IMG/VR virus record: IMGVR_UViG_3300030060_001275
Span: 1 to 52,681 of that record
DNA from: a virus
Lineage: Duplodnaviria; Caudoviricetes
DNA: 52,681 nt
Reading direction: 5' to 3' (one strand)
A program made the position numbers and the translations under genes. Below are positions 8,319-48,847 of the stretch, one piece after another (position 1 is the first letter of the stretch; each line of letters starts with the position of its first letter). The notes under the pieces were generated by a model, which had not been told where the DNA came from, made no database searches, and worked only from the letters and a program-made list of their open reading frames with translations.

Positions 8319-8391
8319 TCTGGGGCTAACGGTTGCCGAAGGGCGTTAGGTAGCCAGTAGTATTATATCACTTTTTACGTGATGATTTCAA
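8319..8391 (-). promoter_or_regulatory. Scaffold promoter and leader hairpin
   Basis: TTGAAA-N18-TATAAT with extended TG (8391-8362), then hairpin CTGG-CTAC-CTAACG...CGTTAG-CC-CCAG just before the SD. Confidence 0.55.
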
Positions 8392-10221
8392 TGCACGTTT
8401 AGTTTGTTCTTGTACTGCTCCGCCTTTGGAGAATGGTGATGAAAACGTATCTTTGCTACTACCTGTTCCACTTAAATCATCTCTTGATTCACCTCTCGTA
8501 GTTCCTGCACCACTTCTCTCTTCTTGCCTATCTTGAGCTTCTTGCCTGTCGCGCTCAGCTTGAACTGCTGATTGAGAAGTTGGTGTATCATCAGCTGGTG
8601 TACTGATGCTAACGTCAATGCCTTTAGCCCCTTTTGTTGATATTTGTGTTGCGGCTAACGACGATCTTCTTGATGCTTCTGCTGGAGTTAATGTGGTTTT
8701 TCCTTTAACTACTCCCCCACCCGGAGTAACCGTGTAATCAATTCCTCCAATCTTTACATCGACAGAATCTCTTTCTCCTGTGGTTACTTTTTCTACATAT
8801 TGCGGAATAGCTCCTAATTTAATAAGTTCTTTTGTTTCATCTCTTGATATGTTTAACTCTTTAGAAAGAGTGTCGTAAAAATCGCTTTTCTTTATTGTAG
8901 TATTGATACCAGTTGCAACAGCACCTACTGGACCACCGACTTTAGCTAAAGCTTTCACGTGATCTATTAATGTTGCATTTGGCCCAAGTTGTGATCGTGG
9001 ATCGAGTTTCCAAGCTTCGCTTAATTCTGTGCCTAATCCCAATGATTTTTCTAACTCCACCATTGCAATTGTTTCATAAGAGTCAAATGCTATTTGATCA
9101 GATCTGTCCTGTTGCCCTTTAGATTTTTCATCTCCATCTCCACCTGTAGGTTGTGTTACAGTGGGTTGTGTAATTTTAGGGGCTTTCTGTTCTTCTGGTT
9201 TATATACTTTGTATCCTGATGGAATTTCTTGCTGTGGCTTGCCATCAATAAACATAATAGTAATTAGCTCACCATTAGGACCAATGTACTGTCTTTGTTC
9301 CGTAGTAGGTACTTTTCCTGTGCCAGCAGCCTGAGCAGGACGAGAAATAAACTGAGAGTAATTAGGGAGTGGTGCTTGTGGAATACCGGGAACCTGATAT
9401 CCACCTTGTTGCTGGGAAGGCGGCATGTAACCATAGCTAAATTGTTGAGGTGCAGGTTGGCCCGGAATTAAAGCTCCTTGCTGTGCATAAACAATTCCGC
9501 CCTCATTAAACTCCATAGTTGATGGGTCATTAGGATCAAACTCATCAATCATAGAGTCTATATCTACTTCCATTTCTGCTGTATCAGACATAGTAGCCTC
9601 ATCAGAATTGCCCATCTGCCCCATAGCTTCCATTTGTGCAAGACCTTGTTTAGCTTTATTACGCAACTGCATCAAATTTTCTAAACCAATATAGCGTGTT
9701 ACATCTGCTGGAAATACAAACTCTCCTTCACTAAGTTGTGCAGGAATATCATCTCTGACTTCTTTTTGGGTAGAGCCTACAGGTACAGCATTTCCAGATA
9801 CAGGATCAACTGTGCCACCTTCATCTTGAAGACCACCTTCTGCAAATCCACCAGCTTTTGATAGTCTAAGATATAACTTTTCAGCTTCTTCTAGCGTAAG
9901 TTCTCCCGCCCGAATTTTTAGTTTAATTTTTTCAACTACAGCTTTACTTGCCGCATCTTTATCTTCTTCTGTAATTTTATTTGCTTTTGTTGCTTTATCC
10001 AGTTCTAAAAAAGCAGAAGTCTTAGCATCTTCCAACGACATATCTTTTCTATCTCGAATACTTTGTTTAATTTTTTCTGCTTCTTCATCAGACATATTAC
10101 CCCTGCTAATGCTTACACTTTCTCCAGCCGCATCTTTTTTAATTGTCATATCTCCAATTGTGGATAGGCCGCCCTTGTCAAACATTTGCATTTGATCTTC
10201 AGTTTTCTTTTTTCTAGCCAT
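8368..10221 (-). CDS. Head-module protein with DDIPAQLSEGEFV domain and several FxxGG motifs (candidate processing protein)
   Basis: 617 aa between portal and scaffold; contains FDKGG, FAEGG, FNEGG, FSKGG and DDIPAQLSEGEFVFPADVTRYIG. Confidence 0.6.
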   Translation of the reverse strand: MARKKKTEDQMQMFDKGGLSTIGDMTIKKDAAGESVSISRGNMSDEEAEKIKQSIRDRKDMSLEDAKTSAFLELDKATKANKITEEDKDAASKAVVEKIKLKIRAGELTLEEAEKLYLRLSKAGGFAEGGLQDEGGTVDPVSGNAVPVGSTQKEVRDDIPAQLSEGEFVFPADVTRYIGLENLMQLRNKAKQGLAQMEAMGQMGNSDEATMSDTAEMEVDIDSMIDEFDPNDPSTMEFNEGGIVYAQQGALIPGQPAPQQFSYGYMPPSQQQGGYQVPGIPQAPLPNYSQFISRPAQAAGTGKVPTTEQRQYIGPNGELITIMFIDGKPQQEIPSGYKVYKPEEQKAPKITQPTVTQPTGGDGDEKSKGQQDRSDQIAFDSYETIAMVELEKSLGLGTELSEAWKLDPRSQLGPNATLIDHVKALAKVGGPVGAVATGINTTIKKSDFYDTLSKELNISRDETKELIKLGAIPQYVEKVTTGERDSVDVKIGGIDYTVTPGGGVVKGKTTLTPAEASRRSSLAATQISTKGAKGIDVSISTPADDTPTSQSAVQAERDRQEAQDRQEERSGAGTTRGESRDDLSGTGSSKDTFSSPFSKGGAVQEQTKRALKSSRKK

Positions 10222-10471
10222 CCGCTAAAGCCTCATTACGTAGATATTTAAGTGAACGCAAAACTTGTACCGCACCCTGTGCTTGATGTATAGATACAAT
10301 ATTATTTGACTGCTCTAATTTTTTATGCTGATCAGTTATTAAAATATCTATATAGTCATTAAACGCATCCCATTGTTTATTATTATTGCAAAGGGGCTTG
10401 AGCTTGCTCACCACCTTCCGGCGGTAATTGCTGCTGTCTTGCGTTTGACTGTTGTTGCTGGGGTTGTTCAT
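10214..10471 (-). CDS. Small conserved protein downstream of portal
   Basis: 85 aa, helical, ..QAQGAVQVLRSL; overlaps the portal end and the next gene start. Confidence 0.6.
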   Translation of the reverse strand: MNNPSNNSQTQDSSNYRRKVVSKLKPLCNNNKQWDAFNDYIDILITDQHKKLEQSNNIVSIHQAQGAVQVLRSLKYLRNEALADG

Positions 10472-12539
10472 TACCTGTAAATCCTTGTTCTCCCGGCACA
10501 GGAACCTGTCCTATACCAATGTTGCCGTTACCTGCTCCAGTGGGATCTTGTACGCCCGGCGGTCCACCCGCAGGTTGTGGGGAAGCAGGAGGTGCATTCT
10601 GTTGCATAAGTTTTTGTTGTAACGCCGCTTCTTCAAAGCTGTTAGTTACTTTATCTGGATCAAGATCCATAGACTTGGCAATCTCACGTACAATATATGG
10701 GAACTTAGCAAACGGTGCTAGTGTTGGGTTAGATGCTACTTGCATGAACTGCATAAGGCGTTGAGAACGTACTTCGTTTGCCATTAATGATTCAGTGCCA
10801 CGAGCTTTAACTTCTAGATCGCCTTTAATTTCTGGATCAAAGTCAAACTGCATATTAAATGAAAACATTGCTTTGCCCAAAGGAGCTAACAAATAATCAT
10901 CTACGTTTTTAATTACAGTTTTAATACCTCCTGCCGCTGCATTCATCAGCATAGATATTCCAGATGCAGTACGTCCTACACCAGATACGCCAGTTTGTCC
11001 ATGTGCAAAAGAAGGGAAGCCTGTTGACTCATCTGCGAGAACTCTAGCTTTGTCAAACAACTGCATATTCTCTCCAGAAACATTCGGAAACTTTGTACCA
11101 AATATAGCTTGTCCCGGTGCTCCACCTTGACGGCGGAATACTTTACCCGGATACACTGAGAGATCCTGACCGGGCACTAGGTTTGTCTCATCAATTTCAA
11201 TGAGCAAGTTCCCTGACAAGACTGCATTGTCTACCGCCATACGCATAAAGCCGTTCATCAGTGTTTGAGTATCGTCCATGTTTTCTGCGATACCTACACC
11301 AAAGAATGAGTATGGATTTAACTCATACGGCACAGCATAGTATGGTATGTTAGCAGGCTTAAAAGGATTTAGCACTGCACGTAGTATACGTCCGTTACAA
11401 TACCAAATATTAGCTTGCACTTCATCTACTTCACCTAAATTATCAGGTAGTTCAACATCTGCGTTTGCTAGTATTTCTTTATCTATTGTGCCCCAATACT
11501 CAAGCACTTCAAATCTATCTATGTCATAGTCAGTTTGATAATCTTTTAGATCATCTTCCCAATACTTTTTGACATATCCTTCTCCCATTTCAATGACTTC
11601 GTCAATCACTTGTTTACGAAAAAATGGACGTTTTTTAAGACTGCGTAATTGTGTGCGAGACATCTTATGACGCTCTATTATATACTGAGCCTCATCCATA
11701 TTAGATGCATCAGGGTCAGGATAAAAATTCCACACAGAAACATGGGAAGTTGAAGGAACAGTTTTAAATGTTGGACTATAAGTGCCTTCATCATCCCAGC
11801 TTGGGTATTCTTTATCTATCGCAAATGGTCCTTTCATTATTCCTGTGCCAAATAATGCCATTTCAAAAGATGTAGATCTTAGCTGTTTAGAAGCATGTGC
11901 CTCTTCCAACTGATCCATTATCTTTTTTTCCATATTTTTTGCGGCATACATTGCAGGTTCAAAAGTAATCTGCGTAGCTGTTAGACCCGGACCTTCCTGC
12001 AAATTTTCAACATCTTCTAGTTTAGTTTGCAGTGGTCCAAGATTCATTTCCCTTAAAGAGTTAGCTGTAGCTCCAGCAGGAAAATCTCTGCCATCTCCCT
12101 CAAAACCATAAAGTGAACCTTCCTCTACAGAGCTTTGCTCCATTTGTGGAGATTTCATATCAAAGTTAACTTCCTTTGATATACCTTCAGGTAACACAGT
12201 AGGATCTACTGAAATAGGAAATTTTTGATTTGCGAACAATACATCAATAATTTGACCGTATGCCGCTAATGTTTTTGTTTTAGTTACTTTAATAAACACA
12301 CGAGACTTCTCAGCAGATGTAAATTGTACATCAGGACCATATAAGCCTCTGTAGTTACGGTACGCTTGCAACCAACGATCCTCATCAGTACGGCGAGTAT
12401 CTTCAGCTTTGCTGTATTTATCTATTACATAACTAACTAACTTCTGTGTTTCAGGAGTCTCTTTAGAAATTTCTGCAACGTCATCTAGTGAAAGTTGTAC
12501 GTCAGTATCACCTTCAAAGATATTTTCTTCATCTTCCAT
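10383..12539 (-). CDS. Portal protein
   Basis: 718 aa directly after TerL; FYPDP, FFGVGIAENM, RTASGISML motifs; Q/P-rich tail. Confidence 0.9.
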   Translation of the reverse strand: MEDEENIFEGDTDVQLSLDDVAEISKETPETQKLVSYVIDKYSKAEDTRRTDEDRWLQAYRNYRGLYGPDVQFTSAEKSRVFIKVTKTKTLAAYGQIIDVLFANQKFPISVDPTVLPEGISKEVNFDMKSPQMEQSSVEEGSLYGFEGDGRDFPAGATANSLREMNLGPLQTKLEDVENLQEGPGLTATQITFEPAMYAAKNMEKKIMDQLEEAHASKQLRSTSFEMALFGTGIMKGPFAIDKEYPSWDDEGTYSPTFKTVPSTSHVSVWNFYPDPDASNMDEAQYIIERHKMSRTQLRSLKKRPFFRKQVIDEVIEMGEGYVKKYWEDDLKDYQTDYDIDRFEVLEYWGTIDKEILANADVELPDNLGEVDEVQANIWYCNGRILRAVLNPFKPANIPYYAVPYELNPYSFFGVGIAENMDDTQTLMNGFMRMAVDNAVLSGNLLIEIDETNLVPGQDLSVYPGKVFRRQGGAPGQAIFGTKFPNVSGENMQLFDKARVLADESTGFPSFAHGQTGVSGVGRTASGISMLMNAAAGGIKTVIKNVDDYLLAPLGKAMFSFNMQFDFDPEIKGDLEVKARGTESLMANEVRSQRLMQFMQVASNPTLAPFAKFPYIVREIAKSMDLDPDKVTNSFEEAALQQKLMQQNAPPASPQPAGGPPGVQDPTGAGNGNIGIGQVPVPGEQGFTGNEQPQQQQSNARQQQLPPEGGEQAQAPLQ

Positions 12540-12544
12540 ATTCT

Positions 12545-14155
12545 TTAATATCCAAATGTAGAGTCTGAGGGAACATAAGAAGAAGGACTCTGATTAGTAG
12601 GATCAAAGTCCCAGATAGAAAATCTAGGTCTTGACATTATACCATAACGTAATGCATCGTATAAGTGATCTTCTGATTTAGTATCTACATCTTCTGGGTT
12701 TCTTTTATCTAATGGTATAACAGGCAATTGAGAAATAATATTTGTACAAGTATTAAAAAATATTATTCTTGGTTCTTCTGTGTATTCGTCAACTTGCAGC
12801 CTTCTGTGCATTTCATTTTTACCAGATACACGAGAACCCGCAGATCTATCTGATGGCCTCCATCTGCATCCTTTCATATTCATTTGTTCCGCCAAAGACG
12901 GCCCAGTATCACCTCGCTTATGCCAGCACGAACTGTCCAAAATTCCATATTTGATATTGTTATCTCCTGCTTCCATATCAATAACCATGTCTGCAAGATC
13001 AGTTGCCAACACTTTACTAACATACAACTCACGATAAACAATAAGCTGTTCAGAAGGTGATACAGCAATCCAAACAACAGCAGAGTAAGAACCATAACCA
13101 TAATCACAGGCGCGAAACTTAACCCAATTGCGAGGTATATCAAAAGGCTCCACAACATGTATTTCTCTGTTAAACTCAGTGAAAGCCGCGCCTTCTGCAA
13201 CATCCCAATTGCCTTCTAATAATTGTTTTCTTTGATGCTCAGGTAAAGACAAGAGCATTGCTTCATAATCCCCCTGCTCATATAAGTGGGGATTGTCTGT
13301 TAACATAGCAGGAATAAACCTGCGTTTAAATAAAGGTTGAAACTCTTTTGAGTGTCCCTTTGGATACATTAACACTTTACCGCTTGCAATATCAGTTGCA
13401 TTAAACGATTGACCCGGAGGCGCAGGATCTATAAACATCTTTTTAACCCATGCATGACCGGGACCACCGGGGTTAGTAGTAGCTCTCATATACACTGGTA
13501 AATCAGGTGCTGTGCTACGCAAACGTGATCTCATATAGTCCCATGCAAAGTTTGTATTCCATTGTGTTAGTTCATCAAACCCTATCCAACTAAAAGCTTG
13601 TCCTTGATATCTTAATACATCATCTGCTCGATCCAGATAAGAAAACCACAACCTTGCACCGGAAGGAGCAACCCACTGCATTTTTCTCTCTGACCATTTT
13701 ATTCCGGGCCAGATCTTTGGATACATCTCCTGAGACTTCCATACAAGCTCTCTAAGCTCTTCATTGGTATGTCGTAATAGCAACCCACTAAAGGAGGGAT
13801 GACCCATGAACCTGAGAGGATCTGCAAGCATTGCGTAAGATTTACCGCCACCTGCCGCACCTCCATAGAGAACTTCTCTTTCACCTGCTGCCAAGAACTC
13901 AGTTTGAGGACCAGCATTAGGTTTAAATATTACATTATGCTCTTCTTCAGGACGTATTGGCTCAAACTCGTTAGGCTCTTGGGGATCTGCCTTTACCTCA
14001 ATGTTGGGTAATGGCTGACTCTTCTTCCTTGCTGATCCTCGACTTCCTTGCGCCAAGCCTCGACCTTTCGATGGTTTCCGCTTTGGAGATCGCCGCTTCG
14101 TACCTTCTGGCCCATTCGCGGAGAGTTGCACTTCGTCTTTTGTGGGACTGCTCAC
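12545..14155 (-). CDS. terL: Terminase large subunit (start uncertain)
   Basis: Walker A GGAAGGGKS, Walker B IGFDE, ATTNPGG, nuclease DYG...DHLYDALRY. Confidence 0.93.
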   Translation of the reverse strand: MSSPTKDEVQLSANGPEGTKRRSPKRKPSKGRGLAQGSRGSARKKSQPLPNIEVKADPQEPNEFEPIRPEEEHNVIFKPNAGPQTEFLAAGEREVLYGGAAGGGKSYAMLADPLRFMGHPSFSGLLLRHTNEELRELVWKSQEMYPKIWPGIKWSERKMQWVAPSGARLWFSYLDRADDVLRYQGQAFSWIGFDELTQWNTNFAWDYMRSRLRSTAPDLPVYMRATTNPGGPGHAWVKKMFIDPAPPGQSFNATDIASGKVLMYPKGHSKEFQPLFKRRFIPAMLTDNPHLYEQGDYEAMLLSLPEHQRKQLLEGNWDVAEGAAFTEFNREIHVVEPFDIPRNWVKFRACDYGYGSYSAVVWIAVSPSEQLIVYRELYVSKVLATDLADMVIDMEAGDNNIKYGILDSSCWHKRGDTGPSLAEQMNMKGCRWRPSDRSAGSRVSGKNEMHRRLQVDEYTEEPRIIFFNTCTNIISQLPVIPLDKRNPEDVDTKSEDHLYDALRYGIMSRPRFSIWDFDPTNQSPSSYVPSDSTFGY

Positions 14156-14453
14156 TATCTATACGCTTTTTTAAACCCATGTGAGAAATGCTACGCCCTG
14201 TCTGTTTAGTCAGCCAGTTTGCAACTTCTCTATAACTATATTGTTGTAAATACTCTTTTGCTTTTTCTAGTGCTCTTAACTCTCTAGGCACAGGAGAAAG
14301 CATATCCTTATCCTCTGGATCTTCTATATAACCAAAAGGAATAGTACGAGCTATTCTTGGAATACTAAGAAAATCTTCATCTTCTATAGTATTTTTAGGT
14401 TGTGGTAATATCCACTTACCCGTTGATCTACTAGCTGTCATTTTCCTCTTCAC
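13998..14453 (-). CDS. Putative DNA-binding protein (recombinase-like HTH)
   Basis: IPFGY...SYREVANWLT...ISHMGL motifs; lies between TerS and TerL. Confidence 0.55.
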   Translation of the reverse strand: MKRKMTASRSTGKWILPQPKNTIEDEDFLSIPRIARTIPFGYIEDPEDKDMLSPVPRELRALEKAKEYLQQYSYREVANWLTKQTGRSISHMGLKKRIDSEQSHKRRSATLREWARRYEAAISKAETIERSRLGARKSRISKEEESAITQH

Positions 14454-14802
14454 GTTTTGGTGGTAATATCATTACACCGCCCGTTGTTTCTACTTGAAGT
14501 TTTTCAGATTTAATAATACCAACACGATCCATAACTTCTTTAGCAGCTTGCATTTTTTCTTTAATGCCTAGTTCAGTAGGATCACGTAACGCACCTACCA
14601 TAGCCATAGCCGCACGAGGGGCTGACTGTGCTAAATACATATTAGTGCGTTCTAGTATTTCATCTTTTAGAGATTCAACGATTCCTGCTGTATGTTGCGT
14701 AGGTGAATATCCAGCTAATTTCTTAGCTTCTACCATACTACCTCGTGCCTCTTCAAAGAGTACATCTAAAAACTTTTGTTGTTTCTCTGTTAGCTTACGC
14801 AT
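14431..14802 (-). CDS. Terminase small subunit (putative)
   Basis: LTEKQQKFL...AKKLAGYS HTH-like start; upstream of TerL. Confidence 0.65.
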   Translation of the reverse strand: MRKLTEKQQKFLDVLFEEARGSMVEAKKLAGYSPTQHTAGIVESLKDEILERTNMYLAQSAPRAAMAMVGALRDPTELGIKEKMQAAKEVMDRVGIIKSEKLQVETTGGVMILPPKREEENDS

Positions 14803-14945
14803 TATGTATACTTCTTACTTTTCCGTTTTGTGCCATCTGCTCTTGCTATTAAACCTCTAGCTTTAGCAGATGCCCGTTCTGTAAATCCTAATTTTTTACC
14901 TGCTTTAATTTTAGCACGTAATGTAGATAATTTAGGCTTTGGCAT
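14802..14945 (-). CDS. 47-aa basic protein (not in ORF track)
   Basis: MPKPKLSTLRAKIKAGKKLGFTERASAKARGLIARADGTKRKSKKYT; its stop overlaps the TerS ATG (TAATG). Confidence 0.7.
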   Translation of the reverse strand: MPKPKLSTLRAKIKAGKKLGFTERASAKARGLIARADGTKRKSKKYT

Positions 14946-15222
14946 CTCGTTGTCTTTTCAATTGCTCTTTTGCTTTTTTAGCTAATTTAGCTTGCTCATG
15001 TTTACCAGCAACTTTGGCTCGTTGCTCTAGCACAGTTAATATCTGTATCTTTCTGGCGTATGGCTTACTAATTTTTTTAACTTTTGTAATAGTTTTTTTA
15101 GCGTCAGCCACAGTAGCGTAAGCAATTGAAACAGTGTCTTTAGGATTTTCATCCGTGTATAATCGTCTTCCGCTACCTTTTGGTTTTTTACCTGTTCCTT
15201 TTGCGGGATCTTTTTTTGTCAC
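14932..15222 (-). CDS. Basic hypothetical protein
   Basis: 96 aa, Lys-rich, RRLYTDENPKDTV motif; tightly packed with neighbours. Confidence 0.7.
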   Translation of the reverse strand: MTKKDPAKGTGKKPKGSGRRLYTDENPKDTVSIAYATVADAKKTITKVKKISKPYARKIQILTVLEQRAKVAGKHEQAKLAKKAKEQLKRQRDAKA

Positions 15223-15325
15223 GAACTACTCCAGCTAAAGTTTTTGCTTGACTTGCATGTGTTTTTGAAGCTTTTTGCAGCCCTTTCATTACTTTTTTAA
15301 TTTTTGCTACGTGTTTAACTGCCAT
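15188..15325 (-). CDS. 45-aa basic protein (not in ORF track)
   Basis: MAVKHVAKIKKVMKGLQKASKTHASQAKTLAGVVRDKKRSRKRNR; ATG directly follows the upstream stop. Confidence 0.65.
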   Translation of the reverse strand: MAVKHVAKIKKVMKGLQKASKTHASQAKTLAGVVRDKKRSRKRNR

Positions 15326-15577
15326 TTAACGATACCTTGCTGTCTTTTTTGCTATTTTTTTAGGCTGTTTTGCAAACTGTTTGCCCGATGCCTTTGCTTT
15401 CCGCTTGGCTTTGGTAGTTGCGGCATATTCTTTGGACGAGAGCGCACGGATAGCCGCTGATGGCAGATAACGCTCCCCAGTGGCCTTTGACCCTTGCGTA
15501 GAAGGCTTTCCTGATTTCGTTCGCCACTTCTGCTTCGTCCAATCTTTTAAACTCTTTTGAGACTTTTTGAGTGCCAT
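15326..15577 (-). CDS. Basic protein (DUF5872-like)
   Basis: SLKDWTKQKWRTKSGKPS...GERYLP motif; family recognised from memory. Confidence 0.65.
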   Translation of the reverse strand: MALKKSQKSLKDWTKQKWRTKSGKPSTQGSKATGERYLPSAAIRALSSKEYAATTKAKRKAKASGKQFAKQPKKIAKKTARYR

Positions 15578-15906
15578 CAGCTTTTGTAACCTCCTCCTGC
15601 TTTTTTATAAGCGGCGGCAAGCATCTGGGCTTTCCGTGCACTCCATTGACCGGATGCTCCACCTTTGCTGCCAGACTTAATGCGGTTAAAGATCCGTTTC
15701 CGTAGGCCGGGTTTGGTATAATTGCCAGCTTCATTGACTCTACTCTTAGGTTTACCTCCCGTTGACATTTTATTAACAGAAGGTTTTGTTTTACCAGCTT
15801 TGGATAAAGCAATTGCCACAGCTTGTTTTTGAGGTTTGCCTTTTTTTATTTCCGTTTTAATATTTTTAGAAATTGTTTTGGAGGATTTACCTCTTTTAAG
15901 CGGCAT
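15577..15906 (-). CDS. Basic protein with WSARKAQ motif
   Basis: 109 aa, Lys-rich; NYTKP.LR...GQWSARKAQ...YKKAGGGY; contains KMSTGGK. Confidence 0.7.
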
Positions 15907-16312
15907 TGCTCTTTTCCTCTTCTTCTCTACTATTCCAGTATTCTACACCATAATCATGTGTTATTTCTGTTCCTTTACGTATGTCCTTTAACGCCACAAA
16001 AACAATTAAGTTTTCATTGTTTTCATCTGCACACCACTCAGCGTTTGGATCGTCAGAGTGATTGTAAAGCATGGCATAGCCTAAAGGAGCAATCATACGT
16101 GAATCATTCGTAAAAGGTGTACCGAACATATAATCCTGTAACACGGATGTGGCTTCTACGTCATCATCTTCTATACTAAGAAAAGGACAGTATTCAATTA
16201 CGTCCCCTTTTTTTATAGGAAAAGAAGCGTATACACCAAATCCGTGTATTTCAGATTCTTTTACGTATATGCTGAGCAATGACTTACTTCTTCTTAGTGG
16301 ACATTCCGCCAC
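15896..16312 (-). CDS. SET-domain protein-lysine methyltransferase
   Basis: SET motifs [10 protein letters not shown]...[28 protein letters not shown]; true start may be the TTG near 16279. Confidence 0.9.
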
Positions 16313-17937: not shown

Positions 17938-17943
17938 TTTAAA

Positions 17944-40685: not shown

Positions 40686-40689
40686 TTAG

Positions 40690-40785
40690 TTATATGAGAG
40701 AAACTGCTACGGTAGTTTTCCCTCCGCTGTTTGATCTCACCCTCACAGCAAAGAGTACAAGCCCCTCGCAATGAGGGGTTTTTTT
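40690..40785 (+). ncRNA. Candidate ~95-nt small RNA
   Basis: Own promoter; stem with c(UACG)g tetraloop; GCTGT/ACAGC stem with a CU-rich loop; terminator GCCCCTC-GCAAT-GAGGGG followed by T7. Confidence 0.55.
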
Positions 40786-43700
40786 ATGTGCGTGACATTA
40801 ATCCGCCACGATTCATATCGTTTGATTTAGTCGCAGTAATTAAATCGCCTTTGCTCTGAACATTACCTTCACCAAACACTTCCTCTACACGAGATACATA
40901 GGCACTGGTAGGCTCGTTTCTTTGGTAGCCTTTAGAAGTTGTCTTTCCTTTTCCTGACTTGTCGCCTGCATAAACTGTAAAGTACGCCTTATCACCGGGC
41001 TTGATTGCATTCTCAGCCTGTTGAATAACACGTTTAATGTTTTTGGGTTCTTTAATTACGTTTAATGTATTATTTGATACAGCAACATCAGCACCACCAT
41101 CTGCAACTAATTCTTTAACAACATTGTTGTGATCAGGTGTGCGATTAAATGGATCGTATACTTGTAGCTCAACGTCTTGCTTTGCTAAATCTTCAACTGC
41201 ATTATCAAAACGACCACCACCAATATCTACAACACGTTGACCGGGCTGAAATACTCCCATCTTTTTAAGTTTAGTATACCCAGCAGGTAACTTGCTTTGG
41301 TTAATAGACGTATCAGCAGACGTTACCTTCTGTGTAGGAACGTCCCATAACTCATCTGCATACTTAGATATAGCTTTGACACCTGTCTTTGCGCCTCTAG
41401 CAACCATACCAACACCCGGCACTGCACCTAACGCACCCAATGTCGCCATGCCATAGTCACCTTTTTCAAAGTCTTCTACGGCGGCTTGTGCTGAACGTAT
41501 CTCACCAGTTACAGGTGCGAGGTCAAGACCTAATCCAACCATTTGACGGGTAGTTTCATCTTCTATCTGTTCTTCAGGTTTGATCAGTCCACCTACAAGA
41601 CCACCAGAGTTAAACTGCTTTGTTTTGTATGCTTCTCCTCTCATTAAATACTCAGAGTAATCAGATTTGCTACTAGGAGCACCAAGCTGTTCGTTAATTA
41701 GAGCTCTAACTTCAGAACTAACTTCATTCTCATATTTGAATTTATATATGTCGTTAAGCGTGTAGCCAAACTCTAACTTTATCATTTCTGGAGTAGCACC
41801 GGGATTGCTATCCATAAAATCCTTTACAGGAGGAATTAACAATTCATTTATTACTCTAGAAGATGTTTTACGTACTTCTTCTCTTGCAATAGTTTTAAAT
41901 TCTACAATCTTTTGCTTGTCCGTCATCTTCTGATAGGCATCTCTTTTGATTAGATCATCTAAAACAGGAGTTAATCTTTGAGATACTTCTTGTCTGATTT
42001 TTACATCGGCAGGACCAAATCTAAATCTGCGATATACTTGATATGGTCTAATCTGAAGTCTGTTAGCTTCTTTTTCTACAGCAGTTGCATTCTCAGAAAT
42101 ATTAAGACCAGAAGTCATGGTAGCAATAGGGTTAACTTTTCTTGCTGGTGTTTCCCTCATTATGCTAAATCTAGGCTCTATTTCCTCATAATCAAATCCA
42201 AGACGAGAAAGGCCACTACGGAACGGTCCAAGAGAACGCCCAGCCTTAGCAAACATAATATCCCACGTAGATACTTCTTTGCCTGTTTCTGGTATGAGTC
42301 GCAGTTGCTCATCAGTTAAAGAGTACAAATCTTTAGCTACACTAAGTGGCATCATTAATGTATAAGTATTAAGATAATTTCCTGCTATTTCACCCATAAT
42401 TTGTTTAAACTTTAGTGTGCCTTCCGCCTCTGTGCCTTTAAACGCACCTGCTATCGATGGTAGTGCTTCATTAATAAGTTGAAGTCCACTACCCGCCCTC
42501 ATGGAAGAACCAACTGCTGTCTGTATTAAATCCTGAGAAATACCTACTACATCTGGTTGAGGTTCACCTTTGATCATTTTAAGTGCTGTGTCAGCAAGAT
42601 ATAACTCTAAGTTCATCGGCCCTAAAAAAGGACGCAGATCCTTAGTTCCCTCTTCTCCTATTATCCCTTCCACGTTATACCAAAGTGTTCCGGGATCTTG
42701 TGTATTACGCAGTGCCATAAAAGCACCGACCATACTGAATCCACTAGCCTGCTGTGCAATTCGTTTGGCAACAGAACGCCCAACATAATTTTTACCCGCC
42801 CCAAATCTTTCAAGTGGGATGGCACCAACAATAGGAGCATGTTCATACATAAACTGTATTTGATTGATTACAAAGCGAGGGAAAGGAATAAGCAAACCGG
42901 AAACAAATCCAGCTTCCTTGTCCATTTTTAACCATCCCCTAGCGGCTTGTCCAAATATACCAGTGTCAGCTTTAGGTGTTTTTTGATAGACCATTTCAAA
43001 GGCTTTGTCCATTGCTTGATTAAACAGCTTTGGATTAATCTGATTGAACTTTCCTTCTTTAATAATTTCTATTAGATCTTTGCCTGTGTCTTGTTTTACA
43101 AGTCTACTTAACTCACCTGAAAATGCAGCCTTCTTAAAAAAGTTATCTGACATTTTATTAAAAACATTAAATATATTTCCTATGGACTCAAGTTTTGTTG
43201 GGCTTCCCCCTGCTATTTTTGTAGTCCCGACACCTGCATCAATAAAACTAGAGAAGAATCTTTCATATCCCTCTTTGTCAATGTTCCTATAAAGATCAGC
43301 AATTAGATCTGCCTCTGGCGTGTCTAAAATATATTTAATCATTTCACTAGATTTAAACACAGATCTTTCTTTTATTGGTGTCGCTCCTGCTACACGCGGA
43401 GTAAGTCTATTGTAAAAATATGTAGTGCTTGTCTCAACAGCTTCCTCAAACATATCTAATCCAATACGAGAAGCACCACCAAATACGTTACGCAAAGTAG
43501 TAACAGGCTGAGAAGTCATAATAGAACGGCGAATTCTTTCAAACCCATTTAAATTTTCTTTTAAATTTTGTATGGTTGATTCTTTAATGGCTTCTTTTTG
43601 CAACTTTATGCCGACATCTATGCCCAAGTTCTCCCCAGCCTCAGTAGCAGTTTTAGCTATGCGTTCAATATTAAGAATATTTTTTTCGTTTATAGTTCTC

Positions 43701-44908
43701 TGAGCGCGTAATAATCTAGCGGCATCAGACACAGAAGACAGCATCATATGCTTGACATGCTTTCCATTAAGATTGTACTTGAGCATAATCTCACTATACA
43801 AATCGTCAGCTATGCCATTTTTAGAAAACGCATTGGCAAAATCTTCCGATATTCTTTTTCCGGGTGTTCTAGGTATAACATCGGAAAATTCAAGAAATGC
43901 GGCTTGCATTCTTTTAAACTCTTGGGGAGTAAAAGACAAACGAAACTCAGGATCTATGTTCTCTGCAATATCTGAAAATAATTGATCACCAATTGCTGTG
44001 CTTTCTGGGTCTAGCGGATCAAGCTTTGCATCTTTTTTAGTCGCCTTCTGTGCATCTTTTAGGGCACCCTTCAGAGTCTTACGAACAAGCTTTGTCTCTT
44101 TTTTAGTCGCCTTTTTTGCATCTACTATTTTATCTAATGATCCTAGTGCGTCCTTTACTTCTTTAACTTTTTTAGAATCGGCATTTTTAATTACTTTTTC
44201 TGCTTCAGTAAGAGCTACGCTATCAAGTGCTTCTGCCGCTTCCTCTCCCTGCGCTTTCAGTATGTCAGCCTGCTGTGACTTTTTTCCTAGTCTTAAAGCA
44301 TTAAATCCACCGAAAGTGACACCGGGAATAGCAGATGCAGCAGTGGTTAAGGCAAATTCTTTACCACTAAAGTCTCTCTCTGGGTCTAATTCCATTCGTG
44401 TGCCTTGCTGTGCCACGTTCTGCCCAGCACCAATAACACCCTCCGTTATACCTGCTCTTAGGGCACCCTTCAGAGTCTTACGAACAAGTAATTTAGTAGC
44501 TGATTGCCCTGCTATAGAGGCTACCTTGCCACTTCCCCCTGTAAGTATCCCTAACCAAGTGGATGGTGCAGTGGCAATACCTGTGGTGTAATCTACGGCC
44601 TTATCTACAAAATCTTCTGTGCTCATTTCCGATTTGTCGTAGACATCAAAAAGACGACCCATCTCAGCTTTGCTTTCTTCATCAGCTTCTTGGGCGTACA
44701 AAAGATCACTAATAGTAGAAACTTCGTTCACATCGTGATATCTCATACGCTGTTGAAATTCTTCGTATATCTCATCGGGATCTGTTAGGTCTAGCTCCCC
44801 TTTACTGCTTTTATACAAATAGTTTGCGGCATCGTCTAAAAAATCTTCATTAACAACCAGATTTTCCCTATTGATATCTTTAGAAGCTAGATAATTGTAA
44901 CTTTTCAT
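40784..44908 (-). CDS. Large internal virion (ejection) protein with C-terminal pre-toxin-like segment and SAM-dependent methyltransferase domain
   Basis: 1374 aa, last gene of the virion block; C-terminus contains VVDIGGG, VYDPFN, SNNTLNVI, AYFTVY, GYQRN. Confidence 0.75.
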   Translation of the reverse strand: MKSYNYLASKDINRENLVVNEDFLDDAANYLYKSSKGELDLTDPDEIYEEFQQRMRYHDVNEVSTISDLLYAQEADEESKAEMGRLFDVYDKSEMSTEDFVDKAVDYTTGIATAPSTWLGILTGGSGKVASIAGQSATKLLVRKTLKGALRAGITEGVIGAGQNVAQQGTRMELDPERDFSGKEFALTTAASAIPGVTFGGFNALRLGKKSQQADILKAQGEEAAEALDSVALTEAEKVIKNADSKKVKEVKDALGSLDKIVDAKKATKKETKLVRKTLKGALKDAQKATKKDAKLDPLDPESTAIGDQLFSDIAENIDPEFRLSFTPQEFKRMQAAFLEFSDVIPRTPGKRISEDFANAFSKNGIADDLYSEIMLKYNLNGKHVKHMMLSSVSDAARLLRAQRTINEKNILNIERIAKTATEAGENLGIDVGIKLQKEAIKESTIQNLKENLNGFERIRRSIMTSQPVTTLRNVFGGASRIGLDMFEEAVETSTTYFYNRLTPRVAGATPIKERSVFKSSEMIKYILDTPEADLIADLYRNIDKEGYERFFSSFIDAGVGTTKIAGGSPTKLESIGNIFNVFNKMSDNFFKKAAFSGELSRLVKQDTGKDLIEIIKEGKFNQINPKLFNQAMDKAFEMVYQKTPKADTGIFGQAARGWLKMDKEAGFVSGLLIPFPRFVINQIQFMYEHAPIVGAIPLERFGAGKNYVGRSVAKRIAQQASGFSMVGAFMALRNTQDPGTLWYNVEGIIGEEGTKDLRPFLGPMNLELYLADTALKMIKGEPQPDVVGISQDLIQTAVGSSMRAGSGLQLINEALPSIAGAFKGTEAEGTLKFKQIMGEIAGNYLNTYTLMMPLSVAKDLYSLTDEQLRLIPETGKEVSTWDIMFAKAGRSLGPFRSGLSRLGFDYEEIEPRFSIMRETPARKVNPIATMTSGLNISENATAVEKEANRLQIRPYQVYRRFRFGPADVKIRQEVSQRLTPVLDDLIKRDAYQKMTDKQKIVEFKTIAREEVRKTSSRVINELLIPPVKDFMDSNPGATPEMIKLEFGYTLNDIYKFKYENEVSSEVRALINEQLGAPSSKSDYSEYLMRGEAYKTKQFNSGGLVGGLIKPEEQIEDETTRQMVGLGLDLAPVTGEIRSAQAAVEDFEKGDYGMATLGALGAVPGVGMVARGAKTGVKAISKYADELWDVPTQKVTSADTSINQSKLPAGYTKLKKMGVFQPGQRVVDIGGGRFDNAVEDLAKQDVELQVYDPFNRTPDHNNVVKELVADGGADVAVSNNTLNVIKEPKNIKRVIQQAENAIKPGDKAYFTVYAGDKSGKGKTTSKGYQRNEPTSAYVSRVEEVFGEGNVQSKGDLITATKSNDMNRGGLMSRT

Positions 44909-46074
44909 TATTTAGGTATCAGGGCTAACGCCTCTGCCTCTGCCTTTACTTCACTATAATTGTAAGGGGATGCCATTAGCATACCTACAACAACGCGCCT
45001 ATTTGAATTTTTTTGTCTGGTGCCCATATCCCCTTTTATAAGTTTAGCTATTCTAGGATCCTCTCTTGGTATGAGTGGTCCTTCTGAATCTGGAATATTG
45101 GAGTCACGGCCAGCTAGACCGCTACCGCCTTCTTCAGTAGTAGTAGTAGAATCAATTACAGGAGGTGAAGAGCTTTCTAAACCAGCGGCGGCTTTAGCAC
45201 TGGTGTAAAAATTTATATTGTCAAGAGCAAACGCATTTGCCGCAGAAATGTCAGCAAGCGGATCAATAGCTGTGTCAGCCGTTCGGTTTTCCTCTATTAA
45301 ATCTCTGACAATTTTAAATGCATCGCCTTTAACTTTGGTTTCATCTTCTATTTGTGCAAAATTGTATTTAAGTTCCCCAGTATTTCTATCTACTACAGCA
45401 GATATTCCCATAGCCGCAGACAATTGATCAAATACATTTTTTCTTAGTCGATTGACTTCTGGAGTTGTTGGAGCAACAAACGCACCTTTCCTCTCCTGCA
45501 TACTTAAAGACTCGCCCTGTCCTATAGTAGGCACATCACCTTCAAATTTTCCTCTTTCTGGAATGTATGCAGACCTAATGGACTCTGCTCCTGTTCCTAG
45601 AGAAATATCTCTTCCGAATACTCCAGTTTTTAATAAATCTGTAGGAGCAACATACAAAGGCTCCTTCACAGTAGAGTACCCACCAGAGTTAATATAATCC
45701 TCTATACTGAACCCAGTTATCTCTTTATTTGCCTCCGCTATAGGCATTAAAGATGCTACAGTTACGCCTCGTTTCTTGGCTACGTCTTCTGCTTTCTGTA
45801 TAAATTCTTTGGCATAAATATCCCCGTTATCCATAATCTGTTTAATGATTATGTCTTTATTTGCTACATTTTCTAATTTTGCAGACAGTGCTTTTGCTAT
45901 CTCCTTTTTAACACGTATCTCTTCCTGATACCGTGGCTTGTAGTCTTTAGCTTCCTCACGAAAATCATCCATTGCTTCCTTGAGAAGTTCAATGCCTATT
46001 TTTGCTGATTCTTCTTCAATTTCTTGCGCTTTAGTTGCAAACCCAGCGGCAAATGCTCCTAATTTAAAAGCCAT
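44908..46074 (-). CDS. Internal virion protein (putative)
   Basis: 388 aa; MAFKLGAFAAGFA start followed by a charged helix; synteny. Confidence 0.55.
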   Translation of the reverse strand: MAFKLGAFAAGFATKAQEIEEESAKIGIELLKEAMDDFREEAKDYKPRYQEEIRVKKEIAKALSAKLENVANKDIIIKQIMDNGDIYAKEFIQKAEDVAKKRGVTVASLMPIAEANKEITGFSIEDYINSGGYSTVKEPLYVAPTDLLKTGVFGRDISLGTGAESIRSAYIPERGKFEGDVPTIGQGESLSMQERKGAFVAPTTPEVNRLRKNVFDQLSAAMGISAVVDRNTGELKYNFAQIEDETKVKGDAFKIVRDLIEENRTADTAIDPLADISAANAFALDNINFYTSAKAAAGLESSSPPVIDSTTTTEEGGSGLAGRDSNIPDSEGPLIPREDPRIAKLIKGDMGTRQKNSNRRVVVGMLMASPYNYSEVKAEAEALALIPK

Positions 46075-46586
46075 TATATCTCACTCCTACGAGTCATTAA
46101 TCCTCTTTGTTCAGGTGCTTTTTTAGGTTCAACAGGCATTTCTTCTGTTGTTATAGTCTCTTCTACAGCACCTTCTTCTTCTTGTAGGGTTTTCATTACC
46201 TGATTAATAATGTCTTGCTTAGTGCCCGGTTCATCGTCTGTGCGCTCATTACCTATCACGTAATCAATCTCAGCCATCTCAGCCATTGTAATCATAGTTT
46301 CTACAAGTATAGGAGACACTAATATACCTACATCTAAAGTATGCACTCCCTCCATTGTATTTGCTGTAATTAAAAGATCTGCTATAGATGTTAAAGGCAC
46401 ACCACTTTGAATTTGACCTAGTAACATTTTAGATGTAGTTTTATTTTGAAACATGGGAGCATACACAGCCGCTGCTTCATCTACTGTACTGATGCTAGAA
46501 GGTCTACGCCAAGGGCGAGACTTAGGTTCTGCAACTAAGGACTCTCCGGGTATGGGAGCATCAAGAAAGTTTTCTGGAGTAGACAT
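46074..46586 (-). CDS. Conserved structural-block protein
   Basis: DAPIPGESL...PW.RP, GVHTLDV; ends GLMTRR. Confidence 0.65.
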   Translation of the reverse strand: MSTPENFLDAPIPGESLVAEPKSRPWRRPSSISTVDEAAAVYAPMFQNKTTSKMLLGQIQSGVPLTSIADLLITANTMEGVHTLDVGILVSPILVETMITMAEMAEIDYVIGNERTDDEPGTKQDIINQVMKTLQEEEGAVEETITTEEMPVEPKKAPEQRGLMTRRSEI

Positions 46587-46792
46587 TATGACATCCTATA
46601 TTCACGAACAGCACTGATTATTTCAGCTACCCTGTCCAGTTCAGATAATTTATTTTTGCGTGTTGATGACTTTGCCATTGTAGACTTTGCTCTTCCACCT
46701 AAACTCAAAGGTGACGCAGTAGTCGGAACATTGCTTTTACTTTTTTCGTAAGACAAAAATCCATCATATACTTGGGCTATTCTTTTAGACAT
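46586..46792 (-). CDS. Hypothetical protein
   Basis: 68 aa, TAATG coupling. Confidence 0.55.
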   Translation of the reverse strand: MSKRIAQVYDGFLSYEKSKSNVPTTASPLSLGGRAKSTMAKSSTRKNKLSELDRVAEIISAVREYRMS

Positions 46793-46795
46793 TTT

Positions 46796-48847
46796 TTATC
46801 CACCTCCTAAGAATCCCATAAACCCGCCTTTCGTTTTACTTGCCCCCGGTACACCAAATAGAGCAGTAGCAGCAAAGGAACCTAATGCTGAACTTGTAGC
46901 GGCATCTGCGGCGGCATCTGCGGCTCTTAATGTTGCATCAGCCGCAATACGAGATTGGGCAAGCTTATTAATACGATCTAACTCATTTTGTCCACCCGTC
47001 CATGCATACTCCATTTCATCCTCGTATGCTTGCCAGAGGTTGGCGTAGGCTTGCTCACTGACACCTAACACTGCTTGTGCATTAAATTGATTTGCAGCAT
47101 TAATAGCGGCAGTATTTATTGTAGCTATCTCTCTGCGCCACTGCGCGTTAGACTGAGCAATAACTACTTGATTTTGAGCATTAAATTGATCTCGTTGATT
47201 TTGTAGTTCTGAATTAAACTTTCTAACAGCAACGCCTTGCTCAATATTAAACTGTTCCATTGCATTAGATTGCGTTGAATTAAATTGAGATACTTGCGTA
47301 GCTAAGTTAGAGAAGAATTGATTAACTTGATTCTGTGAAGAAGCATTAAATTGTCTAGCGGCATTATCAGCCGATTGATCTGACAATAAAGCCTGCACAC
47401 GAGATTGAGCATCAAACATGACAGCTTGTTGTGAGTTAGATAAATTAGCCATATCCATCTGTAAAAATGATTGTGCATTTTGCACAGCGGCTTGTTGTCT
47501 ATTACTTAGATTAGTAGTTTCTAAATTAGCAATTTGAGCTATGTTAGCCATTTGAACAGCCTGACGATTAGTCAGATTATTAAGATCTACAGTTTGAGCT
47601 AGACGAGCATTTTCTAATGCAATCTGTTGTTCTGCATTAAAGTTAAGGTTCGCTATATCGGATACACGAGATGCATTCTGAACACGCGCTTGGAAAGACT
47701 GATCAAACTCTTGCCCAATAAACTGAGCACGTTGCTGTGCAGATAGCATTGCACGAGCCTGTCGGTTAGATAAATTTTGTAGTTCAAACTGAGACATCAC
47801 CTGCGCGTCTTGCACAGCTATTGGTAGGGCAGACTCCATTGCCGCTTGAATAATCGCCTGACCAGCCATAGAGGAAGCAGCAAGACCACGTTGAGCCATA
47901 ACTGCTGTTGCTTGCCGCATAGCACCTGCCGCCCATGTTGGAGTTGCCCCTCCATCAAAGTCAGCCATTAATTTAGCTAACTGACCTTGGACAGTTGCTT
48001 CTGTGCTAGGTTGTGCTTGTGCCGCTTCTACCTGTTCAGCAAACTGTGCCGCTACTGTAGCGTTTGCAGGTGCAGTCACTAACTCTTGTGCAGATAATGC
48101 ACGAGCATCTGGTGCAGTCACTCTAACAGCAGTATCAATCTGTGCCGCTTGTTGTGTTGCTACATCAGTTGACGTAGGTACAGTTGTTTGTGCTACCGCA
48201 GGTGCTGATACAGTGCCAATAGATGGTGCAGTAGAAGGAACTTGTCCAGAAGCTAGCATAGCTTGATATTGTTGTGCAGTAGGGGTAATAGGAGCAGTGG
48301 CTTGAGCAGTGGTAGCGATATTAGGAGTTTCTACCGCAGGAGCAGCACCTAATTGCGTACCCGCTGGTGAAATAGCTTGCTGAGTGCCGAATTGAACTCC
48401 TTGAGCCAGTTGTTGAGCACCTGCTGGCAATCCGGGTTGAAATACTTGTTGTGCCGATACATCTGTGATTGTAGGAAACTGTGTCTGATAAGTTACATTA
48501 CCAGATGCATCAGTTACAGGATTACCCTCTGTATCTAGCACCTGTTCCTGTACAGGCTGTCCCTGCGTATCAAGCACAGGTCCATAAGGGGCTTTCATTG
48601 GGACTGCTTGGCCTACGATAGGAGCACCTACGCCTTCAGACGTTTGTGTAATACCGCCTTCTTGTAACTTACGTACAAATCCTCCAGTATTCATACTCAT
48701 TATCTTAGCTCTGTTTTCCAATCCCATAAAAGCACGTTGTGCACCGGGATTGCTAGCTAAGAATTGATTGAAGTTTTCACGAGGTCCAGAATAACCAAGC
48801 TTCTGGGCAATGCGATCCATTTGGTTTTCTGAGAATCCCTTAAACAT
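46796..48847 (-). CDS. Gln/Ala/Asn-rich internal virion (DNA-ejection) protein
   Basis: 683 aa; long NL.N.QQA / QFNA helical repeats; Gly-rich hydrophobic C-terminus. Confidence 0.65.
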   Translation of the reverse strand: MFKGFSENQMDRIAQKLGYSGPRENFNQFLASNPGAQRAFMGLENRAKIMSMNTGGFVRKLQEGGITQTSEGVGAPIVGQAVPMKAPYGPVLDTQGQPVQEQVLDTEGNPVTDASGNVTYQTQFPTITDVSAQQVFQPGLPAGAQQLAQGVQFGTQQAISPAGTQLGAAPAVETPNIATTAQATAPITPTAQQYQAMLASGQVPSTAPSIGTVSAPAVAQTTVPTSTDVATQQAAQIDTAVRVTAPDARALSAQELVTAPANATVAAQFAEQVEAAQAQPSTEATVQGQLAKLMADFDGGATPTWAAGAMRQATAVMAQRGLAASSMAGQAIIQAAMESALPIAVQDAQVMSQFELQNLSNRQARAMLSAQQRAQFIGQEFDQSFQARVQNASRVSDIANLNFNAEQQIALENARLAQTVDLNNLTNRQAVQMANIAQIANLETTNLSNRQQAAVQNAQSFLQMDMANLSNSQQAVMFDAQSRVQALLSDQSADNAARQFNASSQNQVNQFFSNLATQVSQFNSTQSNAMEQFNIEQGVAVRKFNSELQNQRDQFNAQNQVVIAQSNAQWRREIATINTAAINAANQFNAQAVLGVSEQAYANLWQAYEDEMEYAWTGGQNELDRINKLAQSRIAADATLRAADAAADAATSSALGSFAATALFGVPGASKTKGGFMGFLGGG

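Follow-up and report, generated by a model that had tools for sequence, protein, structure and literature searches.

Podophages lack a tape measure but carry internal proteins, which exit via the tail before the DNA does. Minor head proteins of the MuF/SPP1 gp7 type are encoded by the gene after the portal and often carry variable C-terminal effector domains. In the siphophage lambda, a cut within a glycine-rich region close to the C-terminus splits the tape-measure protein gpH into gpH* and gpHC, for which neither the cleavage site nor the protease is known (PMC12617516, PMC10721106). In the same reports, residues 818–842 form a three-helix coil on the gpI plug in the tip lumen, residues 818–849 were modelled, and residues ~690–817, which contain the module described here, are not resolved in the lambda maps (PMC12617516, PMC10721106). 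Since the gpH end sits on the gpI plug in the tip lumen, the tape-measure end is the exit-side part and leaves first. Here, we report a relative of this module in P617, a 617-residue protein encoded at 8368–10221 on the minus strand of an HMO-2011-type marine podophage genome. The genome (the window) is the entire IMG/VR virus record IMGVR_UViG_3300030060_001275, 52,681 bases with an estimated completeness of 96%. In P617 the module is bracketed by a hydrophobic-x-x-Gly-Gly motif, hereafter the box. In the reading that we favor, with a probability of about 0.4, P617 is an internal, ejected pilot or cargo protein in the post-portal position, and the boxes serve as docking or linker motifs, disordered themselves, on either side of variable cargo. 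The original prediction made for this DNA had instead taken the boxes for a genome-wide sorting or cleavage code, for which the SxGE module of P617 would be the reader or the protease.

The module comprises about 80 residues (126–206; 9604–9846, minus strand) with the core DDIPAQLSEGEFVFPADVTRYIGLENLMQLR and a set of invariant columns, and P617 carries it as FAEGG...DDIPAQLSEGEFVFPAD..RYIG. The original prediction mentioned an FAxGG...xGEFV module in tape-measure C-termini, and it is indeed present in lambda gpH, Salmonella PMBT35, Burkholderia phiBt-TXDOH, Arthrobacter Bumble, and Gordonia Chelms and Mollymur. An hhalign comparison of 23 podophage modules with six tape-measure segments scored 97.5% (E 6.7e-12 over 42 columns), and BLASTP aligned the module with residues 751–774 of lambda gpH (E 3e-4). 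Residues 733–782 of gpH read FATGG..GG.....HRGEFVF.......IG..NL..L...YATGGY, i.e., the box-core-box order of P617. The core ..IPA.LS.GEFV......G..NL.. between [F/Y/L]AxGG boxes is common to the podophage and tape-measure modules, and the gpH chain, like P617, also ends in a box (MRDGGLF...). When the module was searched by tblastn against 50,697 phage records, 14 HMO-2011-type and 44 further records matched at E ≤ 1; 35 of the 44 matches fall in annotated tape-measure proteins (Gordonia, Arthrobacter, Burkholderia, Salmonella, and DSS3 phages), and the other nine in hypothetical proteins of Rhizobium phages, Pelagibacter phages, and one unclassified phage. Five of the six tape-measure matches inspected show [F/L]AxGG...IPAxLSxGE[F/S]V...G..N[L/I] or the lambda-type variant P.G.VH.GEFV; the match in the DSS3_PM1 tape-measure protein was spurious on inspection. 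In Rhizobium phage RHph_TM3_14A (EVB41_086; L007, 2417–3505), the module forms the C-terminus of a 362-residue Q/A/G-rich protein located directly upstream of 963- and ~2300-residue proteins, a layout that resembles an ejection-protein block.

Boxes flank the core on both sides in the window (FAEGG, FNEGG), lambda, PMBT35, phiBt-TXDOH, Chelms, and Mollymur. In the Burkholderia tape-measure protein, ..DSIPAQLSNGEFVV.. is flanked by LATGG and FAAGG, and in Chelms the module is located at about residue 2541 of 3349, ahead of a cell-wall hydrolase-like part. Within the SEGEFV stretch, the tape-measure segments all have only G, E, and V in common and show the variants HRGE, SRGE, SNGE, SPGE, and HKGE; S-E-G-E (Ser164, Glu165) is invariant within the podophage family only. 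A further difference is that some 25 additional conserved residues (DEGGTVDPVSGN.VP.GS) separate box 2 from the core in the podophage module, where the helix that follows the core is also longer. The podophage module resembles the gpHC region in being glycine-rich with no resolved or predicted fold. P617 as a whole is, however, unlike a tape measure: it is the product of a podophage head-module gene after the portal, has no long coiled-coil ruler, and matches neither TIGR01541 (NCBIfam, E ≤ 1) nor the Pfam tape-measure models. The assignment of P617 as a complete tape-measure protein was thus rejected on the basis of the tubular podophage tail, the head-module position, and the missing model match. 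Among the 23 late proteins of lambda, gpH holds six of the 11 overlapping box matches, five of them within residues 733–848; judged from the sequences, the lambda boxes belong to the tape measure and are not spread genome-wide.

To date, the tape-measure C-terminal model region (TIGR01541, gpH 472–813), cargo proteins after the portal, and polyvalent proteins have been described. Among the matches that our literature searches listed, none described the module in a podophage head-module protein or box-bracketed cargo cassettes with a shared C-terminal tail.

P617, the equivalent of HMO-2011 gp49, is mostly disordered by prediction, with basic N- and C-termini. Its gene lies between those for the portal protein (10383–12539, minus strand; PF23899 SU10_portal, 2.9e-23; phrog_332, phrog_1216) and a 295-residue, acidic coiled-coil, scaffold-like protein (7417–8304, minus strand), as the original prediction had stated. 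This arrangement is retained in 80 IMG/VR loci: of the 72 loci with at least one open reading frame (ORF) upstream, 70 have the portal gene among the nearest two, and of the 64 with at least one ORF downstream, all have the scaffold-like gene among the nearest two. In the annotated HMO-2011-type records examined, the gene after the portal is labelled ‘hypothetical’. More than 4150 P617 homologs occur in metagenomes, and the module is found in 3108 cluster representatives at E ≤ 1e-3. Relative to cultured relatives, the module retains 60–75% identity versus ~22% in the remaining P617, while the major capsid protein (MCP), portal, and large terminase subunit (TerL) show 64–76%. The possibility that a nucleotide-level element underlies the conservation of the module was rejected: codon identity at identical residues is 46–55% versus 39–49% in MCP, with no clear excess. 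Like MuF/SPP1 gp7, P617 is encoded after the portal and combines one conserved part with variable, often long extras (183–1635 residues); by analogy with them, it is also probably packaged and injected. Unlike those proteins, it has no Phage_Mu_F match in Pfam, and its conserved part is a predicted disordered, tape-measure-like module rather than the MuF fold.

The octapeptide SEGEFVFP of the module core also occurs, as an exact copy, in a 77-residue early ORF with a good Shine-Dalgarno sequence (25980–26213, plus strand), which begins MKIMT-SEGEFVFP-IDELREKGGF. The copy corresponds to an in-frame 24-nt insertion (25995–26018) that is absent from all five metagenomic homologs of this ORF and shows four synonymous differences to the window’s own P617 copy but only one to copies in other HMO-2011-type phages. 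Microhomology (..D..R, as in the module) may have templated this insertion.

P617 contains four boxes, and in an alignment of 24 homologs all four are conserved islands amid variable sequence. Box 1 (FDKGG, 10168–10182, minus strand, as for all boxes below) lies in the N-terminal leader MARKKK..QMQMFDKGG, and both leader and box are conserved in homologs (consensus MARKKK..Q..F..GG). Box 2 (FAEGG(L), 9832–9846) is immediately upstream of the module, at the position of FATGG, LATGG, and FANGG in tape-measure proteins; G129 and G130 are invariant, and an upstream box is present in 59 of the 59 complete homologs obtained from the 80 loci. Box 3 (FNEGG(IV), 9496–9510), the counterpart of lambda YATGGY, follows the module, with G241 and G242 invariant, F238 kept in at least 90%, the consensus FA.GG[V/I]V, and a downstream box in 56 of 59 homologs. 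Box 4 (FSKGG, 8419–8433) precedes the basic tail ..KRALKSSRKK at the C-terminus (consensus FSKGG..RALKSSRKK) and is a conserved island in the otherwise variable C-terminal half. In the 59 complete homologs, which range from 183 to 1635 residues, the module lies anywhere between residues 48 and 1120, and 245 of the 607 GG runs (40%) have F/M/L/Y at −3. The window and some homologs contain an insert of about 100 residues between two copies of the leader box F..GG (9847–10167, minus strand), and in short homologs the leader box is fused straight onto the module; the boxes thus mark an insertion or duplication joint. Of the 78 homologs with complete C-termini, 34 close with ..GGL[A/M]S[K/R]n (most often ..KKMKRGGLASKK); the ending ..SGLASKK occurs in nine, the window variant in three, and another box in two, so that a box-plus-basic tail is found in 48 of 78.

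Bioinformatics searches gave no family match for P617 or its module in PHROGs, Pfam (module to E ≤ 10), or NCBIfam (E ≤ 1), and searches of the PDB with the module sequence or the family profile returned only low-complexity chance matches. In Pfam, eight long proteins with the module matched only LPD23 and Hint, both below threshold, and L5 gp82 once (27.8 bits). Structure prediction, which the original prediction had named as a check of a catalytic or reader domain, yielded no such domain: AlphaFold2 on residues 100–265 with an 81-sequence alignment reached a mean pLDDT of 60.1 and a pTM of 0.24, with helices at model residues 11–24, 73–79, 81–102, and 122–128, the longest spanning VTRYIGLENLMQLRNKAKQGLAQMEAMGQ, and no globular fold. 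The Atlas model of whole P617 has a pLDDT of 0.47. The Atlas leads (a crAss cargo domain at 0.81 and a Hydrolase_2 cluster) fell below the trusted level and were not used.

These results bear directly on the idea of a code that is read or cut by the P617 module. It is true that P617 occupies the gene position typical of a prohead protease between portal and scaffold, that S-E-G-E is invariant within the podophage family, and that the listed motif instances exist, each in the gene named by the original prediction. That position, however, is equally typical of non-protease minor head proteins and hence not family-defining, and this phage type has a scaffold-like gene but no recognizable protease. 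The candidate catalytic Ser and the first Glu are replaced in the tape-measure homologs, and no peptidase family was matched at E ≤ 0.01 among the 38 late proteins of the window (Pfam; early proteins not scanned), P617 included. Candidate prohead maturation proteases (HK97 gp4/S78, ClpP-like S14, lambda gpC S49, and T4 gp21-type) were rejected because neither a profile match nor a globular catalytic fold nor conserved catalytic Ser/His (or Ser/Lys) residues were present. A double-glycine leader/C39 export system was likewise discarded, as no peptidase was found in this late set and most boxes are internal or C-terminal. So was a T4-type capsid targeting sequence, in view of the missing prohead protease and of N-terminal boxes that are not in excess across 279 families of this phage group (7.7 versus 8.5). 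Moreover, boxes and module occur in cis on one chain in tape-measure proteins, which argues against a separate pair of tag and reader, and the motif is not genome-wide. As far as sequence profiles and the predicted structure indicate, P617 is no protease, and we regard a genome-wide code served by it as extremely unlikely.

Outside P617, the most informative boxes belong to the 1374-residue giant late protein (40784–44908, minus strand), which has a C-terminal methyltransferase-like domain (phrog_14016 on residues 1192–1298; Methyltransf_23 at 23.4 bits, under the 27-bit cut-off) and is probably an ejected, polyvalent-type protein. The methyltransferase part matches proteins of KVP40-like Vibrio myophages with 33–35% identity. 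A junction box, FNSGG(LV) (41600–41614, minus strand), separates the conserved body from variable cargo, and all five related IMG/VR loci have an F/Y-x-x-GG box, or two of them, at this junction, with a conserved linker thereafter. In these loci (L094–L098; 40787–41641, minus strand, in the window), the cargo is swapped after the linker ..EEQIED.TTRQM.GL.LD.APVTGEIRSAQAAVEDFEKGDYGMA..: it is a methyltransferase-like domain, this domain joined to another one, or a domain that is unrelated and a few hundred residues long. The C-terminal tail MNRGGLMSRT (40787–40816, minus strand) is nevertheless maintained, as all six members (the window and the five loci) end in GGLMSR[T/K/R], with F or M at −3 in five. 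The placement of boxes at termini and domain boundaries, which the original prediction had pointed out, is therefore real in these families, with tails in 6/6 after three cargo architectures and in 48/78 P617 homologs. Near-identical C-terminal tails, ..[K/N]RGGL[A/M]S[R/K][K/T], thus occur in two unrelated families.

The coincidence of boxes with cargo junctions can also be explained if the boxes are proteolytic sites, cut by a host protease, by an unrecognized phage enzyme, or autocatalytically, and freeing cargo such as the methyltransferase domain. Precedents exist: the glycine-rich region in which lambda gpH is cut lies close to the module (PMC12617516), and in TP901-1 the tail lysin Tal is cut at a glycine-rich junction between structural and catalytic parts (PMC11409707). 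Tal resembles the window proteins in that the glycine-rich motif joins structural to catalytic cargo parts in a virion protein at the exit end, but its motif, NGGGNSGGGD, has no hydrophobic residue at −3, and its cut was shown experimentally (PMC11409707), whereas a cut at the window boxes is conjectural. Polyvalent proteins, giant proteins with swappable enzymatic cargo such as methyltransferases, have been proposed to be injected along with the DNA and processed into units (Iyer et al. 2017, PMC5512222). The 1374-residue family swaps its cargo in the same way, and in the Atlas its body neighbors an LPD38 cluster (0.93, with 175 features in common; a lead only); it differs in that no LPD or MPTase Pfam model matches the window’s late proteins and the methyltransferase match is sub-threshold. 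Against cleavage stand the absence of peptidase families from the late set and the many boxes located within 10 residues of the C-terminus, where a cut would free nothing useful. We consider processing at the boxes quite unlikely.

A second architecture is shown by the 683-residue Q/N/A-rich protein (46796–48847, minus strand), the equivalent of HMO-2011 gp25, which belongs to no family and has orthologs in four relatives. Its N-terminal double box MNTGGFVRKLQEGG (MNTGG..LQEGG; 48653–48694, minus strand) is kept as MA.GGM[IV].K[MY]Q.GG in HMO-2011, MW202701, and CRP-1 and has diverged in CRP-207.

The remaining boxes occur in small proteins. The 121-residue protein (16991–17356, minus strand) carries MKEGG and MYVGG (17087–17146) in an invariant, predicted-disordered stretch: residues 70–91 have a pLDDT below 50 despite their invariant residues, and in 14 family members with differing N-terminal halves G74, G75, G79, K80, H84, Y86, V92, and D94 never vary. 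The possibility that this domain is a diverged copy of the module was rejected by hhalign (0.65% and 0.30% against the P617/tape-measure module). The 64-residue protein (16284–16478, minus strand) is an array of KKMM(R)GG(G)M units with four KM..GG boxes, and its six family members (45–73 residues) differ by whole repeat units. The HMO-2011 copy has 50 residues (L001, 36629–36781, minus strand) and is unannotated in NC_021864. In the 109-residue basic protein (15577–15906, minus strand), KMSTGG (15754–15771) is not conserved; HMO-2011 has AKPKAK there, and other family members have [LM]K.GG or no box. The C-terminal half of this protein (....YK..GGGYK) is strongly conserved in an 18-member family with variable N-termini (phrog_17747, function unknown), and its N-terminal 42 residues match another PHROG. 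Finally, LNKGG (18258–18272) is found in a 171-residue basic protein (18201–18716, minus strand) for which none of the four cultured or annotated relatives has an ortholog. A 138-residue SET-domain protein with the protein lysine methyltransferase fold (15896–16312, minus strand; PF00856, E 3.8e-18) is encoded amid this run of Lys-rich small proteins (64, 109, 193, 85, and 171 residues), and its gene overlaps that of the 64-residue protein; the SET protein and the Lys-rich small proteins could form an enzyme-substrate neighborhood.

The composition of these proteins raises the alternative that boxes with Lys/Arg tails are nucleic-acid-binding elements, similar to RGG or AT-hook motifs, by which small basic proteins and the ends of large ones would travel with or condense the packaged DNA. 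Extreme basicity, e.g., of KKMKRGGLASKK, the basic N- and C-termini of P617, and the 64-residue protein, which consists almost entirely of Lys, Met, and Gly, speak in its favor. The terminal box of lambda gpH, MRDGGLFSGGGR, is not basic, however, and the sequence around boxes 2 and 3 of P617 is acidic. We find a nucleic-acid-binding role for the boxes and their tails very doubtful.

The frequency of the box was assessed as [FMLY]..GG and as the stricter [KQ][FMLY]..GG in 38 late and 38 early proteins of the window against 2000 residue shuffles, i.e., the late-versus-early enrichment check that the original prediction had called for. In late proteins, the strict form occurs eight times versus 1.2 expected (0/2000 shuffles reach eight) and the general form 21 times versus 10.3 (4/2000 shuffles reach that). 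Early proteins show no excess, with 1 versus 0.5 and 3 versus 4.5, respectively. Part of the late excess arises because of a general excess of GG (88 versus 65.8), double counts in GGG, and the repeats of the 64-residue protein. In the window and three of four relatives, late proteins have two to three times the GG-run density of early ones; in HMO-2011, where the early strand was only partly covered, the densities are 6.6 and 5.3. The late-only excess in residue shuffles thus stands, but it is weak when GG positions are fixed, as given below. Box density per 1000 residues is 1.87 overall, 0.2 in the capsid protein, 5.5 in P617, and 8–69 in several small-protein families. The boxes of the 617-, 683-, 121-, and 64-residue proteins and the C-terminal tail of the 1374-residue protein are kept in relatives, and this conservation, a matter of sequence comparison, is stronger evidence for the boxes than the window statistics.

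Several observations weigh against the docking or linker reading. When GG runs were held fixed and the other residues permuted, no residue at offsets −6 to +6 survived family-wise correction; the strongest at −3 was Met (7 versus 3.3 expected, family-wise p 0.996). F/M/L/Y at −3 occurs in 16 of 78 cases versus 12.3 expected (P = 0.15) in the window, with P values of 0.12–0.46 in four relatives. F/M alone gave 12 versus 5.3 (P = 0.007), an uncorrected value for a set chosen after looking. A box within the last 16 residues was found in 10.5 families versus 6.2 expected from internal windows across the 279 families, which is only a modest C-terminal enrichment at the family level, and the statistics of the window are weak. 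Thirty of the 78 P617 homologs with complete C-termini have no C-terminal box, and the 121-residue domain shows no profile relation to the module, so that the boxes of different families may be unrelated. T7 gp14, gp15, gp6.7, and gp7.3 contain no box and gp13 and gp16 one each; the motif is thus not general to podophage ejection proteins. The module segment is not seen in the lambda maps, which makes its role in the tape-measure proteins themselves conjectural. Low AlphaFold2 confidence, moreover, is not proof of disorder. Finally, our literature search, which included PMC9038755, found no virion proteomics or structure of an HMO-2011-type phage, so the presence of P617 in the virion and its ejection are deduced here.

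A competing explanation is that the boxes have no common function, being simply frequent in glycine-rich, basic, disordered late proteins under constraints private to each family, with a pattern picked post hoc. The lack of positional enrichment with GG fixed in the window and its relatives, the absence of an N-terminal excess, the unrelated 121-residue family, the unconserved KMSTGG, and the general richness of late proteins in GG runs all agree with such an explanation. Yet, it accounts poorly for the 40% of GG runs with F/M/L/Y at −3 in the P617 family, the near-identical tails of two unrelated families, the bracketing of variable cargo in two families, the same boxes around the module in tape-measure proteins from distant hosts, and box densities of 8–69 in several small families against 1.87 overall and 0.2 in MCP. 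We therefore hold it to be unlikely, although a contender to be taken seriously. What the sequences show is a genuine short motif, conserved in a few late families and often placed at termini or cargo junctions, and not a tag on late proteins generally; the recurrence noticed in the original prediction holds in this narrower form, while its genome-wide extent does not.

The docking or linker reading can be put in terms of a mechanism. P617 would be a mostly disordered, virion-internal protein, made from the gene right after the portal. The tape-measure-like module would serve to dock P617 on the portal-tail axis or in the channel and, at infection, would lead the exit of protein and DNA, as the tape-measure end does; the remaining P617 would be fast-evolving cargo or spacer. 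The boxes would most likely work as flexible elements for docking or linking, perhaps in concert with tails that are basic and bind DNA, rather than as a genome-wide sorting code. They flank the module in cis and would also bracket or cap cargo in a few other, probably ejected proteins, namely the 1374-residue protein (junction and tail), the 683-residue protein (N-terminus), and the Lys-rich small proteins encoded upstream of the terminase. Such a role is suggested by the position of the boxes in cis around the module, around the swappable cargo of the 1374-residue protein, and at chain ends. Indeed, residues that are conserved yet predicted to be disordered, as in the boxes of P617 and the 121-residue family, are typical of short binding or linker motifs. 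Cleavage would have no part in this mechanism. A bolder version would treat the boxes and the GEFV module as a shared exit code of tail-channel proteins, siphophage tape-measure ends and podophage cargo proteins alike, in which chain ends dock at the channel plug, the order of exit is set, and cut or hinge points free cargo (methyltransferase and others) in the host, the cut in lambda gpH being one instance; taken as a whole, this seems to us improbable.

The layout of the window agrees with that of HMO-2011-type phages, a group described as among the most abundant marine phages (PMC9038755, PMC6918029). The capsid, portal, and terminase proteins share 68–76% identity with those of Puniceispirillum phage HMO-2011, Roseobacter phage CRP-1, and the uncultured record MW202701, which identifies the window as an HMO-2011-type marine podophage. 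On the basis of ORF layout and GC skew, late genes occupy two minus-strand blocks (1–19214 and 40784–52681) and early genes a plus-strand block (19517–40635). The minus-strand order begins with the run of small, mostly basic proteins and continues with the small terminase subunit (TerS), TerL, portal, a small ORF, and P617, followed by the 295-residue protein, the major capsid protein, the adaptor, tubular tail proteins A and B, and fibers. The 295-residue protein (phrog_13678, unknown function) is always found downstream of P617 and is scaffold-like in position and composition. The major capsid protein (6063–7133, minus strand; phrog_267, PF25209) is 75% identical to the HMO-2011 coat protein. 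The second late block closes with proteins of 683, 68, 170, 388, and 1374 residues, none of which has a known-family match in PHROG or Pfam. The small, medium, and giant members of this set (170, 388, and 1374 residues) are reminiscent of T7 gp14/15/16, which likewise close the structural block, and the small basic proteins encoded before the head genes are reminiscent of T7 gp6.7 and gp7.3, whose ends are glycine-plus-basic. Yet, the T7 ejection proteins show no sequence or family match to the window proteins.

Two further late genes deserve mention. The 571-residue protein (3046–4761, minus strand) matches phrog_5107 ‘amidase’, and its homolog HMO-2011 gp44 is annotated as an amidase. Hardies et al. 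tabulate gp44 as tubular tail B (PMC4819975), and the amidase or lysis label is probably wrong. The 362-residue protein (51008–52096, minus strand) resembles ring-hydroxylating oxygenase alpha subunits (PF00848, E 7.7e-6) and is 70% identical to HMO-2011 gp61, annotated as methanesulfonate monooxygenase; its gene is an auxiliary metabolic gene within the late strand.

Collectively, these observations dispose of a false lead: this genome shows neither a concealed prohead protease nor a cleavage code that spans its genes. Through its module, P617 connects the head genes of a podophage with the most poorly understood portion of siphophage tape measures, the lambda gpH fragment, and so brings an abundant group of marine phages together with a tape-measure end that still awaits explanation. 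The cassettes with boxes on either side indicate the sites at which marine podophages carry exchangeable and probably injected enzymes. It is suggested that the exit-end chemistry of injected proteins may be common across tail types.

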